Shown here in pieces: positions 5,446 through 13,464 of a stretch of 40,531 bases of DNA. Position numbers and translations under genes: made by a program. Within the stretch, counting starts at the first letter, position 1; each line of letters opens with the position of its first letter. Origin of the DNA: Candidatus Helarchaeota archaeon (GTDB taxonomy: Archaea > Asgardarchaeota > Lokiarchaeia > Helarchaeales > RDOG01); the NCBI GenBank assembly GCA_019058315.1, contig JAHPZH010000010.1:1-40531 (forward strand), read 5' to 3'. The notes below the pieces were generated by a model. The model had not been told where the DNA came from, searched no databases, and worked only from the letters and a program-made list of their open reading frames with translations.

Positions 5446-6711
5446 TTAACCATTAGTAGCTTGCACACCATGAACAAAAATCATTACTCTCTGCCCAACA
5501 TTTCTACCTTGGTCGTAATCATCAGCAAAAGAACACGATACATTCCACCCAACTTTTGCAAAAAAGGAGGGAACATTTTTTACATCAAGACCCCATTTAA
5601 AATGCTTAGAAAAAGAATCCTTTAGAAGTTCATTTCTAATAATACGATTAGGAATCCATCTTGATTGGTGCATAATATCCACGAAGATTTGACTATTTTG
5701 TGCACTTATCTCAGCTGTTTTTGAAAGTAGAGTGACAATTTTTTCTTGTTCCATATAGTAGACAAGACCTTCTAAAACCCAAAAAGTGGGAGTATTACTC
5801 GAAAATCCGCTATTTAAAAGAATGGAGGACCATTTGGGTTCAGAGATATCTGCAGAAATACGTATAAGATCACATAATGGTTGTTTGTCTTGCAAAATCT
5901 TTTCTTTATAGTGGATAACAATGGGGAGATCAATCTCGAATAATTTATGGAGATTTTTTTGGATTGGTGTGAATCGATAAGCACGCGTGTCCAAACCAGC
6001 CCCTAATAGAACGATCTGGGATTTCGAATGTGCATCGCACCAAGGTTTTAACAAGTTTTCTTCAATGTAATATGAACGAACGATTGGATAATCCATTTCG
6101 GAGTAACGTATATGCTCTTTAAGATATGAAGACAAATCACCAGCGAGTTTTTCTGCGAATGGATCAATAATAAGAGGATTATCACGCTTGTATTCTTGAG
6201 CACGGTAATATGCCATAAGACGGGATGTGAAAGGTATACTAGCACTCTTATTATCCATACTTTGTTTGTTTTTAGATGAATTATCATCCATTTTCTGATT
6301 TTTCAGCCCTAATTGTTCGCTTTTATCTATATAAGTTCCTTTACCACTTAAAGAAGCTAAAGCTCTAGCTAGCTCCATATATGCAAAACCTACAATTCCG
6401 TCTGGTTCAATACGAACAATGATTGTTCTCTTGTCATCTTTAGCTCCTACAATATGACCTTCACCCTTAATGGAGGTTGCAATTAATCTTTCGTTTGAAC
6501 AGAGTCTGATTATGTATCTAATTCCAGAAAACATAATGGGATTAGTCTTCATAGAAGACCAGTTAGAAATTAATTTGTTGATATCTGCTTTTATATCCCA
6601 ATTATCTGTTGAATAAATAATATCAGCTTTTCCCTCAATTAAAGCAACTGAAATAACATAAGGTAAAGCTTGCTTTAGTTTAGATAAAATAGCTTCGTAA
6701 TTTACGGACAT
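5446..6711 (-). CDS. Fusion of an Asgard profilin-like domain and an LCM-family (leucine carboxyl methyltransferase-like) SAM-dependent methyltransferase
   Basis: N-terminal 120 aa show YSTDNWDI, SGIRYII and ERLIATSIKGEGHIVG, the pattern of Loki profilins. The C-terminal part shows RAQE..DPFAEKLAG, QIVLLGAGLDTRAYR, FEIDLP and WVLEGLVYY. Confidence 0.8.
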   Translation of the reverse strand: MSVNYEAILSKLKQALPYVISVALIEGKADIIYSTDNWDIKADINKLISNWSSMKTNPIMFSGIRYIIRLCSNERLIATSIKGEGHIVGAKDDKRTIIVRIEPDGIVGFAYMELARALASLSGKGTYIDKSEQLGLKNQKMDDNSSKNKQSMDNKSASIPFTSRLMAYYRAQEYKRDNPLIIDPFAEKLAGDLSSYLKEHIRYSEMDYPIVRSYYIEENLLKPWCDAHSKSQIVLLGAGLDTRAYRFTPIQKNLHKLFEIDLPIVIHYKEKILQDKQPLCDLIRISADISEPKWSSILLNSGFSSNTPTFWVLEGLVYYMEQEKIVTLLSKTAEISAQNSQIFVDIMHQSRWIPNRIIRNELLKDSFSKHFKWGLDVKNVPSFFAKVGWNVSCSFADDYDQGRNVGQRVMIFVHGVQATNG

Positions 6712-6727
6712 TTATAGATAAGACCTT

Positions 6728-7183
6728 TCAATCATCTTCTATGGGCAAACCAATAATTACTTTTTTATCAGTGAAAAAACTATCAGACATTGAATCATGA
6801 GTAGAAATTTCTTCTACAATTGCACCTTCTTTTGAACTGAAAGTATGATTAGTACCTGGTTCTAGATTATAATGGTCACCAGGTTTTAGTGTTATAGTTT
6901 TATCAGGCAATGTTAAGATCACTTCACCTTTATGGCAGAAAAAAGTCTCTTTTTTCTTTTTATGATGGTGTTCAGGACATCGTTGTCCAGGTAAAAGAAT
7001 TAACCACTTGGAACAGTATTCGGGTTCATTAATTCTTGTAACCAAAGCCATACCAATTTGTTCAAAATTATTGAAACCATAAGTCGCAATTCGAAATTGT
7101 ACATCTGGTAAAATAGGAATACCGGCTTCAGCTAATTTCTTTCGAGCTATTTCCTCGTATTTCTTAAATTCAGATCTCTTCAT
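6728..7183 (-). CDS. D-lyxose ketol-isomerase family cupin
   Basis: YCSKWLILLPGQRCPEHHH..KKETF, LKPGD..LEPGTNHTF and AIVEEIST, typical of the D-lyxose isomerase cupin family. Confidence 0.8.
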   Translation of the reverse strand: MKRSEFKKYEEIARKKLAEAGIPILPDVQFRIATYGFNNFEQIGMALVTRINEPEYCSKWLILLPGQRCPEHHHKKKKETFFCHKGEVILTLPDKTITLKPGDHYNLEPGTNHTFSSKEGAIVEEISTHDSMSDSFFTDKKVIIGLPIEDD

Positions 7184-8465: not shown

Positions 8466-8840
8466 TCACATTAAAGCTCTTATTTTTTTATAAAAGTCAA
8501 GTAATGCAATTCGAATTAAGGGCAAATTTAGATCTTCTCCTCCTATCCCAATGAAAGTTAAAGTTTGTTCTACTCCTTCTTTTGAAATTTTTGAGATTAT
8601 AATAATTCCATTTGGTCCTTCAAGAACATAGTCTTTTAAATTTCCCATTTCTAAGAAATTCGAAAATTGCTGGAATGTTGCTTCAACATTGAATATTTCC
8701 ATGATGATTTTTTCTTTTAAATCGGCTACTAGTGTGGTTGCCAAGACTTTCCCATCAGGGTATGAGATTAAGAATGTCCCAGTAATTCCAGTAATTTGTT
8801 CCAAATCTCGAAGATATTTTTCCATTTGTCCTATATTCAT
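8466..8840 (-). CDS. Roadblock/LC7 (LAMTOR2/MglB-like) domain protein 2
   Basis: GITGTFLISYPDGKVLAT, GNLKDYVLEGPNGIIII and LNLPLIRIAL fit the roadblock pattern. The start was reassigned to ATG 8840, 4 bp after the upstream stop, because the longer ORF overlaps the upstream roadblock gene. Confidence 0.8.
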   Translation of the reverse strand: MNIGQMEKYLRDLEQITGITGTFLISYPDGKVLATTLVADLKEKIIMEIFNVEATFQQFSNFLEMGNLKDYVLEGPNGIIIISKISKEGVEQTLTFIGIGGEDLNLPLIRIALLDFYKKIRALM

Positions 8841-8844
8841 GTTT

Positions 8845-9210
8845 TCATCCCATAATTTTTTCGATTTTAATTGAGGCATTTCTAATTTCAAATGCACATG
8901 ATGGAATATTAGCGTATTTTTCAAGAAAAGTTACGATAATTGAATTTCGACCCGCATTCATGATAATGAAATTACCCTCATCACTATCAACAATCACTCT
9001 TTCTAAATTGGATTTGCGAAATAGTTTGTATAAATGATCTAAAGTCAACTTTACTGAAGTAACAAGACCGCTTGCCATTACAACCTCGATCTCTTCTTCC
9101 CAAGTTGTCGCAATTGGAATTCCATCAGGATATGAAATAATTACACTTCCGAGAACTCCTGTCGTCTTACTTAGTTCCTTTAATATAATAGTTAATTTTT
9201 CTTCGGACAT
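8845..9210 (-). CDS. Roadblock/LC7 (LAMTOR2/MglB-like) domain protein 1
   Basis: GVLGSVIISYPDGIPIAT, LERVIVDSDEGNFIIMNAG and ANIPSCAFEIR give a canonical 120-aa roadblock domain. Confidence 0.9.
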   Translation of the reverse strand: MSEEKLTIILKELSKTTGVLGSVIISYPDGIPIATTWEEEIEVVMASGLVTSVKLTLDHLYKLFRKSNLERVIVDSDEGNFIIMNAGRNSIIVTFLEKYANIPSCAFEIRNASIKIEKIMG

Positions 9211-9261
9211 TCATTCAAACCTTTTCTTTTTTTTTAAACTTAAATTGTTTAATTTTTAGAA

Positions 9262-10923
9262 TTATTTATAAAATTTTTTCAAATTGTCTTTGAAAAAATT
9301 GATCGAAACCCATCTAACAAGCTCTTTCAAATCAAAACCCCCATCATGTGGTGCTGCTCTTTTATGTAAATTCATTTCACCAGGCAACGTAATAGTACAA
9401 CCTCCCATTAGTGTCAACAAATCTGAAAAATCTTGAATTTTTTTCATCTGACCAATAATTGAGAATGTTTGAAGAAATTTTTGGATTTTCATTTCTTGGA
9501 TCCAATTTTTAATTTGATCTAATTCATTAAAAGGAACAACCATGATAAACCGATTAATACAAGCATCAATATCAGACTTATTAGGCATTCTTCTTAAATA
9601 TAGAACAGTCCAGTCAGGATTTTGAGTTAAAGCCTTACCTTTAGGAATAAAAAGTTTGCCCCAACCCTTATTTTCTATTTTAAATGTATAAAAATCTCTT
9701 TTATTTAAGGTTTCAATTGCTTCATACTCAGTCATTTTGGTCCTAGCAAGCTGTTTGCTCATTTCTCCTAGTTCTAGACTCAATAATTTTGCGAACCCAA
9801 GAGCTGTGTTAAATGTTATCGTTCTTCTTAACATATCCATGCTCTCTGACATCAACGAGATTATTTGTGAATCCACATTTGAATTTGTTTCTTGATTTGG
9901 TATTGAATTGTCATTTATTTGATTCATGAGATTTGTCATTTCACTTCTAATATTGGAATCATCTTCACATAAATTATTTGTGTTCTTTTCTTGAACAAAT
10001 ACAATTCGAGGAGAACAGCAAGCATATTGGTTCCAAATGGAGACATCCTTAGCGATTTCTCTAGCCACGAGCGTTAAATATTCCCGTTTATTTAGAAAAT
10101 CTTCGGTAATAATTGAAAAACTGAATTTCGGACCATGTTCAATGAACTTAACCCCATAATACGCTGATAATTTTTTTAATTGCCTAACAGATTCTAATCC
10201 ACCCCAAGCTATAACTACATCAATGAGTTCTTCATTGAATAAAAATTGGTAGATATTTTTTTCCCTACCTCTCCAATACATGACTGCTAATTCTCTTGCT
10301 AAGTTTCTATCAATATCGTAAATTGTTTGAACAAATCTGACTGCAAAATAGGGTTCTCCTGAAGCGAGCTTAATAAGATTAAGATTTTTTGTTAGGATAC
10401 CAAATAAAATACTTATAGGTCCAATTACAAATGCATTTCCAGCTAAGCTGTGAAGGATTAAACCTCTTGGTTGAGCATGTAAAAGAACATCATTTTTTAC
10501 AACCCAATCATCTAGAGAATTTATATCCCCAAATTGTTCAGATAAAAAACCAATGAGATGATCTTTTTGAAACAGTTCTAATACGTGTTCTAATTCAAAA
10601 TTAATCAATGCCTTTGATTGTCCCGTCACTAATGAAAGAACTTCTTCTGCTTCTTTTTTAAATTCAAAATTAGGGTTAGTCCATATATCATGAAGTTGGT
10701 GTAATATTTCTATTGTTTCTAATATCGGTCTGTCATGTGCTTGCTTTTTATATTTATTTAAGTAAATTACTGCAAGCTTTATTTCTCTAGAGCTTATAAC
10801 TGGATAGCTAATTTCAATTATTTTATCTCTTCTCTTGATTTTTAGGGTATCATCTACTCTATCTATATATAATCCCCCAACATATGAAGGTAAATTAATT
10901 TTAAGAGAAATATCAATCACCAA
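9262..10923 (-). CDS. luxC: Acyl-CoA reductase, LuxC family (ALDH superfamily)
   Basis: QPRGLILHSLAGN, VVIAWGG, IEHGPKFSF, NQYACCSP (catalytic Cys region), FLQT and PHDG..L..LVRW. Confidence 0.88.
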   Translation of the reverse strand: MVIDISLKINLPSYVGGLYIDRVDDTLKIKRRDKIIEISYPVISSREIKLAVIYLNKYKKQAHDRPILETIEILHQLHDIWTNPNFEFKKEAEEVLSLVTGQSKALINFELEHVLELFQKDHLIGFLSEQFGDINSLDDWVVKNDVLLHAQPRGLILHSLAGNAFVIGPISILFGILTKNLNLIKLASGEPYFAVRFVQTIYDIDRNLARELAVMYWRGREKNIYQFLFNEELIDVVIAWGGLESVRQLKKLSAYYGVKFIEHGPKFSFSIITEDFLNKREYLTLVAREIAKDVSIWNQYACCSPRIVFVQEKNTNNLCEDDSNIRSEMTNLMNQINDNSIPNQETNSNVDSQIISLMSESMDMLRRTITFNTALGFAKLLSLELGEMSKQLARTKMTEYEAIETLNKRDFYTFKIENKGWGKLFIPKGKALTQNPDWTVLYLRRMPNKSDIDACINRFIMVVPFNELDQIKNWIQEMKIQKFLQTFSIIGQMKKIQDFSDLLTLMGGCTITLPGEMNLHKRAAPHDGGFDLKELVRWVSINFFKDNLKKFYK

Positions 10924-10974
10924 AATAAAAGAATTAATATAAATTTAATATCCTTCATAAATTTGGTAATTGTA

Positions 10975-12114
10975 TTACTCTCCAGCTAAATCTGCTATCA
11001 TTGCTCCACAACCTTTTGCATCGGCTCCGACAGCTCTGCTAACATTTTGGAAGGTTTTTCCATATCTACCGCATTTACACTTCTTTTCATTAATGAAATC
11101 TGCAACATCGTCTAACAAGATACTGATACCTGGCCAACTAGTGGATAATGGATTTATTATATTCACTAATCCTTTTTCACCTTCTTTTACTGGTTCCATT
11201 GTTTGAGGATCTCGAAAAATTATATCTCCCCAAGGTGGTACATGAAATAGTAATTCACTACATTCATGAAAAGACAAATCACTTTCAGTTAATCCATAAT
11301 TATCTCTAACTCTATTTAATGGAACACCGAGAATATCACTAATCACCTTTCTGAATTGGTCCTTACTAATTGCTTTGCCTGCAAATGTCTTCCAGCCTCC
11401 ACCAAAACCAGCTGCAAAGCTATTTTTTAAATTGAATTTTTTTCCCGTTTTCTCATGCATTTTAGTTAGAGTTAAGAATGCAAGTGCTGGACTACCACCA
11501 AACATAAAGACCTCTTGAGTTTTGGATGCTTCTATAAGATTTTGCATGGTTAGCTGTATATCAATTGGGATTTTCCCTTCCTCTTTTTTTTCTGTCATTA
11601 AGTATACGGCGCTTTCGCACATTCCTTCTGTCCAGACTTTCATTCCTACAGAAAATGTGAGCCCTTGTATGAACTTTAAAGAAGGTCCAAAGACAACTCC
11701 TTTTTTAAATCCTTCTATTTCAAATAAAAGTCTAGCATCTTTTAAACCGAAATCATAATATCTCTTGTCTGATAAGACGTCTCTTCCAACAAAACTTGGG
11801 TCACCTGATGTACCACTGCTTCTGTACCATGTGACGATTTGATCTTCGGGAATTGAAATTAAACCCTTATATAAATTATATGATTGTTTAAAAGATTTTG
11901 AGGTTATCCAAGGAATTTTGACGATATCGTCATATTCTTTTAAATCTTTTGAAGGGTTAAAATCATTTTTTCGGCAAATCTTTTTAAAGGGTGTACAATT
12001 CTTGAAATGATGTTTTGTTGCCTTTTTTATAACTTCAAATCTCATATCTCGAATTTTATCTGGATTCTGGTGATAGGGGTCCTCAATTTTGAGAAAATCT
12101 TCTATTTCTACCAT
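10975..12114 (-). CDS. luxE: Acyl-protein synthetase, LuxE family
   Basis: IPWI..KSFK, SSGTSG adenylation loop, GGGWK, RDNYGLTE, FHVPPW, IRDP-like IFRDP, SWPGISILLDD and a C-terminal R...A.AKGC Cys. A GAGGTGA Shine-Dalgarno-like site lies upstream. Confidence 0.9.
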   Translation of the reverse strand: MVEIEDFLKIEDPYHQNPDKIRDMRFEVIKKATKHHFKNCTPFKKICRKNDFNPSKDLKEYDDIVKIPWITSKSFKQSYNLYKGLISIPEDQIVTWYRSSGTSGDPSFVGRDVLSDKRYYDFGLKDARLLFEIEGFKKGVVFGPSLKFIQGLTFSVGMKVWTEGMCESAVYLMTEKKEEGKIPIDIQLTMQNLIEASKTQEVFMFGGSPALAFLTLTKMHEKTGKKFNLKNSFAAGFGGGWKTFAGKAISKDQFRKVISDILGVPLNRVRDNYGLTESDLSFHECSELLFHVPPWGDIIFRDPQTMEPVKEGEKGLVNIINPLSTSWPGISILLDDVADFINEKKCKCGRYGKTFQNVSRAVGADAKGCGAMIADLAGE

Positions 12115-12150
12115 AACTTCACCTCATTTGTTTGATAATTAATTTTTTAA

Positions 12151-13464
12151 TTAACCTCCCACCAAAGTAATAATAGACATATTATTCAAGTGATACCCTC
12201 CAGGAGTTGAGTTTTTAATCTCTCCAGACGAGCCGAAACCAAAAATTGGTATATCTTTTCCTATTTCCTCCCTAATGACATTTATCTCGTCTATAATTCT
12301 ATCCCCGAGCAAAGAAAGCCTTGCCGAGCAGTCAAAATAAATCAAAAATTTTGGATCTTCAACATTCTCCAATGCCATTTTTACTGCTCTTCTAGCTGAT
12401 TCTAATATTATTTCCCCTGTCGCTTCACAAATTTCTAACTCTAATTTTTTCTCCACCATTTTTGGAGGCAAAACGGTAAAAATCGAGTCGTACTGGGGAT
12501 CTGTTACCGCCACATATGGATGTATACTATCTTCATCTTCTAAACCTAATAACGATAAAAAATTTATGTATCCTTGATGTTTTAGCTCATTTAAAGCCTC
12601 TTTTTCATGCCCCATGACTTCAAGTAATCCGTCTAGCGCTTTTTTTCCATTTATACCCATGAGAAATGGTCCAACATTTTTTGTAATTTGAATTCTTTTC
12701 CCTGTACGCCTTACACCAATATCATAACCAACTCCAAACTTATGGTTATTAGAAGAAAGCATACAAGCAATAACTGAATCGTAATTCACGGTTTCATTGA
12801 AAAATTCAAAAGTTTTTACACCACTGAGATCTCCACACTGAGTTCCAACAATTGGACAATTTAGACCATTTTCTACTAAATATTCCACTAATTCTTGAGT
12901 AATTGGAAAACCTTTTCCCTCACTAGCAAAATTTCGCATGTTACTCCAAAAAATTCTCGAAACCAAGCTACTGAAAACACGAGCACCAAAACTATCGAAT
13001 CTTTTCTGTTGAGCCAATACTTCAGGAGGGATCCTATAGCCGGAAGTAAAGAGTAAGATTACTTCATTTAAAGTTTTGTTAAGATGTGATTTATAGCTTT
13101 TAATAATATCTTGTCCTATTTTTTCGTAGTTATCCCTTGATTTTGTCCAAATTTGAGGTTCAATAACATCAATATCTCCTCCTAATAAGAGAATTCCAAC
13201 TGCTCGGATTGAAACATTATTATTTATTATTATTCCTATAGATCCACCACCAAGTAATGGAGTATTTGGAATCTCTTTTTTTATGCCTTTTAGAACATTT
13301 TCCAAATTGTATATATTTGCAGCTGATAAATCTATACCTATAATCGCTAATTTTGGAGTTCCAGAAAAATCTTTCAAAGCTTCCTTGGTTGCTTCAATAC
13401 CAGCTAAATAAGAATTAGAATTTGTTGAAAAACCGACACTTGCCTCAAGCATATATTCACACAC
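12151..13464 (-). CDS. FIST N + FIST C domain signal-transduction protein
   Basis: AGIEATKEAL, PLLGGGSIG, INGKKALD, FDCSAR, PIFGFGSSGEI and NNMSII are FIST hallmarks. There is no output domain. Confidence 0.85.
   Translation of the reverse strand: MCEYMLEASVGFSTNSNSYLAGIEATKEALKDFSGTPKLAIIGIDLSAANIYNLENVLKGIKKEIPNTPLLGGGSIGIIINNNVSIRAVGILLLGGDIDVIEPQIWTKSRDNYEKIGQDIIKSYKSHLNKTLNEVILLFTSGYRIPPEVLAQQKRFDSFGARVFSSLVSRIFWSNMRNFASEGKGFPITQELVEYLVENGLNCPIVGTQCGDLSGVKTFEFFNETVNYDSVIACMLSSNNHKFGVGYDIGVRRTGKRIQITKNVGPFLMGINGKKALDGLLEVMGHEKEALNELKHQGYINFLSLLGLEDEDSIHPYVAVTDPQYDSIFTVLPPKMVEKKLELEICEATGEIILESARRAVKMALENVEDPKFLIYFDCSARLSLLGDRIIDEINVIREEIGKDIPIFGFGSSGEIKNSTPGGYHLNNMSIITLVGG

Follow-up and report, generated by a model that had tools for sequence, protein, structure and literature searches.

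A diverged profilin domain fused to a predicted carboxyl methyltransferase in Lokiarchaeia-type Asgard archaea

Introduction

Profilin is a signature protein that ties the Asgard archaea to the eukaryotic cytoskeleton, and profilins also bind phosphoinositides. To our knowledge studies of profilin have dealt with it solely as an actin regulator that stands alone. The solved Asgard profilins (5ZZA, 5YED/5YEE, 5ZZB and 7PBH) are free-standing proteins of 120-145 amino acids (aa) that have been shown to regulate actin, and a 2021 survey of 256 Asgard profilins discusses short N-terminal extensions only (PMC8410842). Here we describe a gene in a 40,531-nucleotide (nt) stretch of DNA from Candidatus Helarchaeota archaeon (class Lokiarchaeia, order Helarchaeales; assembly GCA_019058315.1, contig JAHPZH010000010.1, positions 1 to 40,531; hereafter the window), in which a profilin-family domain is joined by a linker to a methyltransferase that uses S-adenosylmethionine (SAM). 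The product is a two-domain enzyme, conserved in a subset of Lokiarchaeia-type Asgard archaea, in which a diverged profilin is tethered to a catalytically intact methyltransferase. Our favoured, tentative reading is that the profilin would bring or gate a carboxyl methyltransferase, most likely via actin.

Both domains belong to known families, and their combination is apparently undescribed. No description of a profilin-methyltransferase fusion was found in the searchable literature, in which some key profilin papers are not covered; this agrees with the first-pass annotation of the window, whose author did not recognise the architecture as described. The database name of the protein is merely "class I SAM-dependent methyltransferase". 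New here are the assignment to a carboxyl-methyltransferase branch with its landmark residues, an alternative accessory domain (domain X), two trees, distribution counts and a contig that bridges the domain junction.

Results and Discussion

Reality and conservation of the fusion

The fusion gene is a single open reading frame (ORF) with an ATG start and no internal stop or frameshift (Table 1). End-to-end alignment of 43 homologues (45-78% identity) revealed a shared start codon and retention of both domains in these full-length proteins, a conservation far beyond chance. Mean identity among the homologues is 61% in the methyltransferase and 47% in the N-terminal domain, but only 21% in the linker, which ranges from 31 to 58 aa in length. 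The full-length structural model has a predicted template modelling score (pTM) of 0.74 with a disordered linker, in which residues 126-157 have a predicted local distance difference test score (pLDDT) below 50. At the nucleotide level, a Logan contig from the probable source run covers the region with zero differences, and another study contributes a contig of 531 nt (X2, record 9, 6070-6600; 97% identical, 15 differences) that runs from within the profilin domain through the linker into the methyltransferase (residues 38-214).

That two separate genes were joined by an error of assembly or gene calling is a practically negligible possibility and was rejected, since the frame recurs uninterrupted in dozens of independent contigs drawn from several sources, the gene itself has no stop or frameshift, and the contig from the independent study bridges the junction. 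The fusion is real and conserved. The first-pass annotation had proposed checking read support across the junction and searching other Asgard genomes for the same architecture, and both were rewarded, the second by 16 species-level loci. The architecture that it had described, namely a profilin-type N-terminal domain, a polar linker of about 35 aa and a complete LCM-type methyltransferase, is likewise borne out by phmmer, AlphaFold2, Foldseek and Pfam, and the linker that it quoted is present in the protein.

The profilin domain

A phmmer search of residues 1-135 against PDB sequences matched Asgard profilins exclusively, aligning residues 1-128. The E-values to solved Asgard profilins ranged from 2.8e-10 to 3.7e-05, and included 2.8e-10 for Odin profilin (5zza_P), 2.2e-08 for 7pbh and 9e-06 for 5yed; 5zzb was also matched. 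The same residues gave zero matches to Pfam as a whole, PF00235 included, even at E<=10; the PF00235 model represents mainly eukaryotic profilins and has a gathering cut-off of 25 bits. An AlphaFold2 model of residues 1-128, built from a 56-sequence alignment (A2), has a pLDDT of 90.2 and a pTM of 0.85, and consists of an N-terminal helix, two strands, a short helix, five strands and a C-terminal helix. When this model was compared with the PDB using Foldseek, the Odin, Loki-1, Loki-2 and Thor profilins ranked first (E 1e-10 to 1e-06, template modelling (TM) score 0.73-0.87, with the top hits at 0.82-0.87), followed by eukaryotic profilins, so that ranks 1-47 are all profilins and Roadblock first appears at rank 48 (E 2.5e-4). 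The profilin fold that the first-pass annotation had proposed to check in this way is thus confirmed, with Asgard profilins on top, and a Roadblock/LC7 identity for the domain was rejected.

Profilin, a seven-stranded sheet with a helix at either terminus, differs from Roadblock in that three extra strands replace half of the Roadblock central helix, and in the Loki profilin-actin complex this three-strand insert touches actin (PMC10933270). The model of the fused domain contains the profilin-specific insert at residues 59-80. The fused domain also keeps residues conserved across the profilin family (L12, Y33, W38, W51, Y66, R75, A78 and G85-H86-I87), and it resembles the solved Asgard profilins in sequence, fold, topology, three-strand insert and family residues. 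It differs from them in being an N-terminal module of an enzyme, in being more diverged, and in carrying residues that are conserved within the fused clade and not in stand-alone profilins (Y5, L16, I101, E102, D104, I106, I107, E113 and L118).

The host genome encodes two further profilin paralogues, a stand-alone protein of 124 aa and a protein of 241 aa (L002:1147-1872, G000 contig C5) whose linker is rich in Pro, Gln, Glu and Thr and whose C-terminal domain is small and helical. The fused domain is 37-40% identical to these two, whose PF00235 scores are 25.6 bits (just over the cut-off) and 22.5 bits (under it), with E-values of 1.5e-05 and 1.3e-04. They match Odin profilin with E-values of 1.6e-17 and 7.7e-20, compared with 2.8e-10 for the fused domain. 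Because both paralogues match the solved profilins and Pfam more strongly, the N-terminal domain is best described, on sequence and model evidence, as a true but diverged member of the profilin family.

The methyltransferase domain

The catalytic domain matches Pfam LCM (PF04072) over residues 166-332 (E 9.1e-32, 110.9 bits against a gathering threshold of 22.3) and NCBIfam TIGR00027 over residues 162-399 (148.4 bits against a cut-off of 93.55). Its best PDB matches, by both sequence and structure, are Mycobacterium leprae ML2640c and Mycobacterium tuberculosis Rv0731c (family profile E 1.5e-21; TM 0.74), and its identity to enzymes of this type is about 22-24%. Eukaryotic LCMT1, which reportedly methylates the C-terminus of PP2A, ranks below these, as do yeast PPM1 and TYW4. 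These are carboxyl O-methyltransferases that have PF04072 and a Rossmann-type core in common with the fusion enzyme, and the profile match to LCMT1 reaches E 1e-9, but the relationship is distant (TM 0.58 for LCMT1/PPM1) and single-sequence similarity to LCMT1 amounts to E ~1e-3 over 55 residues. Orthology to LCMT1/PPM1, with a PP2A-like phosphatase methylated at its C-terminal leucine, is therefore very improbable indeed and was rejected; ML2640c and Rv0731c outrank LCMT1 by sequence (E 1.5e-21 versus 1e-09) and by structure (TM 0.74 versus 0.58), TIGR00027 is much the nearer family, and the catalytic domain of about 260 aa is shorter than the 334 aa of LCMT1. The first-pass annotation was right to place the enzyme in the LCM superfamily, and its caveat that bacterial relatives act on small molecules proved apt, as the enzyme groups with ML2640c and Rv0731c.

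Characterised members of the TIGR00027 or "OPCMT-like" family convert a carboxylate to a methyl ester in a SAM-dependent reaction, and in 2023 ML2640c and Rv0731c were proven to be small-molecule carboxyl methyltransferases (PMC10193983). Both are monomeric and their substrates are rigid hydrophobic small acids, not proteins; in enzymes of the ML2640c type Thr20 and Tyr194 hold the substrate carboxylate and there is a large hydrophobic pocket (PMC10193983). The fusion enzyme shares the SAM-binding residues and the Thr/Tyr landmarks with this OPCMT-like group (ML2640c, Rv0731c and M. neoaurum MnMT4 of PMC10193983). The SAM-binding residues R170, R212, G237-A238-G239, D261, D288-I289 and E314-G315, which align with Arg28, Arg90, Ala113-Ser114-Gly115, Asp135, Asp164-Leu165 and Glu189-Gly190 of ML2640c, are kept in 38-43 of the 43 homologues. 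The OPCMT-like enzymes come from Actinomycetota, act on hydrophobic acids and are monomers with a single domain and about 300 aa; the fusion enzyme, in contrast, belongs to an Asgard-specific clade whose members mostly carry an accessory domain. Since the SAM-binding and carboxylate landmark residues are conserved, it is very probable that the enzyme is active and esterifies a carboxylate with a methyl group; homology to carboxyl methyltransferases does not fix which molecule bears that carboxylate. Among the newly recognised microbial carboxyl methyltransferases, the family marks out a branch specific to Asgard archaea.

Table 1. Features of the fusion gene and its product; positions are those of the window.
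Feature	Position	Strand	Basis
Whole gene, profilin-linker-carboxyl methyltransferase fusion (421 aa; stop codon 5446-5448)	5446..6711	minus	ORF list and translation
Profilin-family domain, residues 1-122	6346..6711	minus	phmmer, AlphaFold2 model, Foldseek
Modelled elements of the N-terminal domain (H, helix; E, strand; residue numbers): H5-15, E19-26, E30-34, H41-52, E59-61, E64-71, E75-80, E86-91, E95-101, H107-121			AlphaFold2 model
Lys/Asn/Ser/Glu-rich disordered linker, residues 123-160	6232..6345	minus	Low pLDDT; variable among homologues
TIGR00027/OPCMT-like SAM-dependent carboxyl O-methyltransferase domain (LCM superfamily, predicted), residues 161-421	5449..6231	minus	PF04072, TIGR00027, structure matches
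Thr162, counterpart of the carboxylate-binding landmark Thr20 of ML2640c	6226..6228	minus	Profile alignment; Thr in 41/43 homologues
Gly237-Ala238-Gly239, SAM-binding motif I (LLGAGLDTR)	5995..6003	minus	Aligns with ML2640c Ala113-Ser114-Gly115; both glycines invariant
Asp261 (EID), predicted to bind the SAM ribose hydroxyls, counterpart of ML2640c Asp135	5929..5931	minus	Alignments; invariant
Tyr319, counterpart of the carboxylate-binding landmark Tyr194 (Tyr/Phe194) of ML2640c	5755..5757	minus	Alignments; 43/43 homologues

Distribution and the accessory domain slot

A search covering 5.8 billion proteins, in which architectures were tallied in the top 120 clusters of 321 relatives, found profilin and methyltransferase in one chain in 68 of these clusters, from which the 43 aligned homologues come. 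A scan of one genome per species yielded 40 loci, comprising 16 fusions, one broken copy, 16 genes with another accessory domain and seven encoding the enzyme alone. The full fusion is present in 11 of 301 sampled genomes of the phylum, all of them in the class of the window, where most genomes have no copy of the enzyme at all. In the order to which the window belongs, two of seven genomes possess the fusion. In one genome (L053:8163-9238, G273 contig C161) the fusion gene is split into two frames by an in-frame stop, which is either a pseudogene or a sequencing error. A 105-kb fusion-bearing contig (DATKTP010000204.1; L011/L022) is filed under a bacterial metagenome-assembled genome, Candidatus Deferrimicrobium; it encodes an archaeal-type EF-2 and an RLI/Tsr3-like gene and is probably mis-binned Asgard DNA.

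In genomes labelled Thor-, Heimdall-, Hod-, Hermod-, Jord- and Odin-, the enzyme's orthologues (55-65% identical) are joined at either the N- or the C-terminus to a conserved helical domain of about 145 aa, unrelated to profilin and here termed domain X (P0072:1-150 and P0076:300-457; alignment A4). The motifs of domain X include ISPRLLRDPLS and EAHIVGYLKAILQL. Comparison with Pfam gave sub-threshold noise only (best E 0.11), a profile search of the PDB gave nothing significant (best E 0.1), and a search of the ESM Atlas gave nothing above noise; among the longer proteins searched, domain X occurs only together with this enzyme. Some orthologous Asgard methyltransferases have no extra domain, and the window's genome encodes one copy of the enzyme and zero copies of domain X. 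Phylogenetic analysis of the methyltransferase placed the X-bearing and stand-alone forms in one clade (SH-like approximate likelihood ratio test (SH-aLRT) support 95) with no profilin-fused member. The sole outgroup in this tree is a Prochlorothrix homologue on a branch of 4.5 substitutions per site and the root is unreliable, so the tree does not set the direction of the swap between domain X and profilin. As the same slot may hold profilin, domain X or nothing, we infer that the profilin slot is interchangeable and that the accessory domain works on behalf of the enzyme, as a module for targeting or regulation.

A profilin subfamily prone to fusion

With the N-terminal domain as query, exhaustive HMMER searching recovered 113 relatives of many lengths. 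By Pfam assignment, the same profilin subfamily is found N-terminal to TrmB-type winged-helix (wHTH) domains in proteins of about 400-440 aa, and N-terminal to SIR2 (P0148, 408 aa), a second enzyme partner. In other relatives profilin is C-terminal to Ras-family GTPases (P0125, P0145 and P0188; Pfam), to winged-helix arrays (P0204, P0225 and P0230), to a long coiled coil (P0224) or to an MIT domain (P0223). Profilin behaves as a promiscuous module in these archaea. The first-pass annotation regarded Asgard profilins as normally stand-alone, which is not true of this lineage, given the fusions to TrmB-type wHTH domains, SIR2, Ras GTPases, MIT and coiled coils.

In a tree of profilin domains one clade (SH-aLRT 96) holds every one of the 29 LCM-fused domains sampled, in keeping with their origin in a single fusion. 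Its neighbours are the wHTH-fused clade, the SIR2 fusion and a family of proteins of about 201 aa, whereas the two ordinary profilins of the host genome lie apart. The profilin-TrmB fusions belong to the same fusion-prone subfamily, with N-terminal domains 36-43% identical to that of the methyltransferase fusion and the same layout of N-terminal profilin, linker and effector. They differ in that the effector is DNA-binding and the gene is linked to actin (L093), whereas the methyltransferase fusion has an enzyme as effector and no conserved neighbour. In five genomes of one genus a second actin paralogue is followed, after 54-100 nt and on the same strand, by the gene for the 400-aa profilin-TrmB protein (L093:307-2700 on G099 contig C4, and G057:C58, G121:C64, G077:C46 and G141:C243). 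This second actin is 74-77% identical to the main actin and has the same HRCF end. Its adjacency to the wHTH fusion is the sole genomic link of this profilin subfamily to actin, and bears on the methyltransferase fusion by analogy.

Proteins of 201-245 aa that resemble the 241-aa paralogue are common in the class (e.g. L088:1276-1881), and the 201-aa L088 protein, the wHTH fusion and the methyltransferase fusions all have a PYLD-x3-LG-like motif after the profilin domain. The 124-aa profilin of the host genome (L003:1489-1863, G000 contig C6) is followed 147 nt downstream by a gene for a 317-aa protein that has a PPPPP stretch and zero Pfam matches, the pair occupying L003:1489-2963; this may be a proline-rich partner of profilin.

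Possible roles of the fused profilin

In the mechanism that we propose, the methyltransferase would be the working part of the protein and the profilin an interchangeable targeting or regulatory module, whose likeliest partner would be actin, either as a monomer or at the barbed end of the filament. Carboxyl methylation, of a carboxylate on an actin-associated protein or of a hydrophobic acid, would then be confined to, or gated by, the actin cytoskeleton. We favour this actin-based reading, with a probability of roughly 0.4, because the family-wide profilin residues are kept and the sister wHTH fusions are linked to actin. The retention of the actin-contacting three-strand insert in the AlphaFold2 model also speaks for it, and the parallel fusion of an enzyme, SIR2, to the same profilin subfamily argues for profilin as a module. 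Several observations weigh on the other side. Actin binding by the fused domain is a prediction, and the domain is the most diverged of the three profilin paralogues in the genome, with no PF00235 match. The clade-specific residues around its C-terminal helix (I101, E102, D104, I106, I107, E113 and L118) could mark a different partner, and the nearest characterised enzymes are monomeric and take small hydrophobic acids as substrates (PMC10193983). At the 40 loci the fusion has no conserved cytoskeletal neighbour, be it actin, gelsolin or another gene, and neighbourhoods vary by lineage. The gene is also patchily distributed, being found in 11 of the 301 sampled genomes while most of the class lacks the enzyme, which points to an accessory rather than a core cytoskeletal function. 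A more specific proposal, in which profilin docks the enzyme on actin so that it methyl-esterifies a carboxylate of actin itself (e.g. that of the C-terminal ...HRCF) or of an actin-bound protein, is decidedly unlikely; the C-terminal carboxylate of actin is invariant and lies beside the profilin-binding site.

It is possible, though we lean against it, that the protein is a small-molecule carboxyl methyltransferase whose profilin-like domain has no relation to actin and places the enzyme at a membrane or lipid head group, where its substrates would be fatty, isoprenoid, steroid-like or other hydrophobic carboxylic acids. Conservation of the landmark residues of ML2640c and Rv0731c, which methylate rigid hydrophobic acids (PMC10193983), is in keeping with this, as are the reported binding of PIP2 (phosphatidylinositol 4,5-bisphosphate) by Asgard profilins (PMC8410842) and the presence of an Rce1-like membrane protein directly next to the fusion at two loci and of an ICMT/PEMT-like membrane methyltransferase at one. 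Yet the protein has no membrane segment, no lipid-metabolism gene is a conserved neighbour at the 40 loci, and where other fusions of this profilin subfamily show a linkage, it is to an actin gene rather than to membrane genes. The mean net charge of 24 fused N-terminal domains is about zero, so they are not notably basic, which is not decisive. We consider it unlikely that the profilin fold has instead taken on a sensing or docking role towards a partner other than actin, such as a small GTPase, a helical or proline-rich peptide or its own catalytic domain, as with the structurally related Roadblock and longin domains, switching the enzyme on or off rather than localising it. The paired helices are partner-binding sites in both the Roadblock and profilin folds (PMC10933270), and it is in the N- and C-terminal helices and the preceding loop that the fused clade conserves residues not found in stand-alone profilins (Y5, L16, I101, E102, D104, I106, I107, E113 and L118). 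The divergence of the domain relative to its paralogues, the fusion of the same subfamily to Ras-family GTPases and the full-length pTM of 0.74, which despite the disordered linker may reflect some packing between the domains, would also fit such a module. Foldseek, however, ranks profilins far above Roadblock (E 1e-10 versus 2.5e-4), the profilin-specific insert is present, and no GTPase is a conserved neighbour at the 40 loci.

The fusion hints at, without proving, a link between methylation and the archaeal actin skeleton. Taken together, the fusions of profilin to the methyltransferase, SIR2, Ras GTPases and the wHTH domain whose gene adjoins that of actin suggest that profilin could serve in Lokiarchaeia as a general adaptor between the actin pool and various enzymes and regulators. 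If so, a layer of signalling or modification linked to the cytoskeleton would predate eukaryotes; if not, the family would still illustrate re-purposing of the profilin fold. Should methyl-esterification of actin or of an actin-bound protein prove true, the archaea most closely related to eukaryotes would possess a hitherto unknown system for modifying the cytoskeleton, and profilin would for the first time be seen as a module that targets an enzyme.

Gene neighbourhood

When ORFs within 8 kb on either side of the 40 loci were clustered and 46 flanking proteins were compared with Pfam, no conserved partner gene was found. Even the closest homologue (75% identity) has different neighbours. In the window, the fusion gene is preceded on its own strand, across a gap of 16 nt, by a gene encoding a 151-aa cupin (6728-7183, minus strand; Cupin_2 E 1e-11, D-lyxose isomerase-like E 1e-10). 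The short gap and shared strand make it probable that the two are co-transcribed here; the pairing was not seen at other fusion loci. A scan for sigma-70 promoters and terminators returned 11 sites against 11.4 expected, the model being uninformative for an archaeon.

A gene for a membrane Rce1-like protein of the CAAX-protease family lies directly beside the fusion at two loci, at one of which it starts within a few bases of the fusion stop codon on the same strand, and another fusion locus is flanked by genes for an ICMT/PEMT-like membrane methyltransferase and an Arf/Ras GTPase (L010/L011/L022, L025:5426-6688 and L012:4900-5775 for these neighbours). The Rce1-like and ICMT-like proteins recall C-terminal processing; the cases are too few to count. 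Within the window, two Roadblock genes occur with LuxC/LuxE-type acid-reducing enzymes at 8466-13464, a few kb from the fusion. This adjacency is not conserved at other fusion loci; in the window it gives, together with the fusion itself, two pairings of a profilin/Roadblock fold with a carboxylic-acid enzyme.

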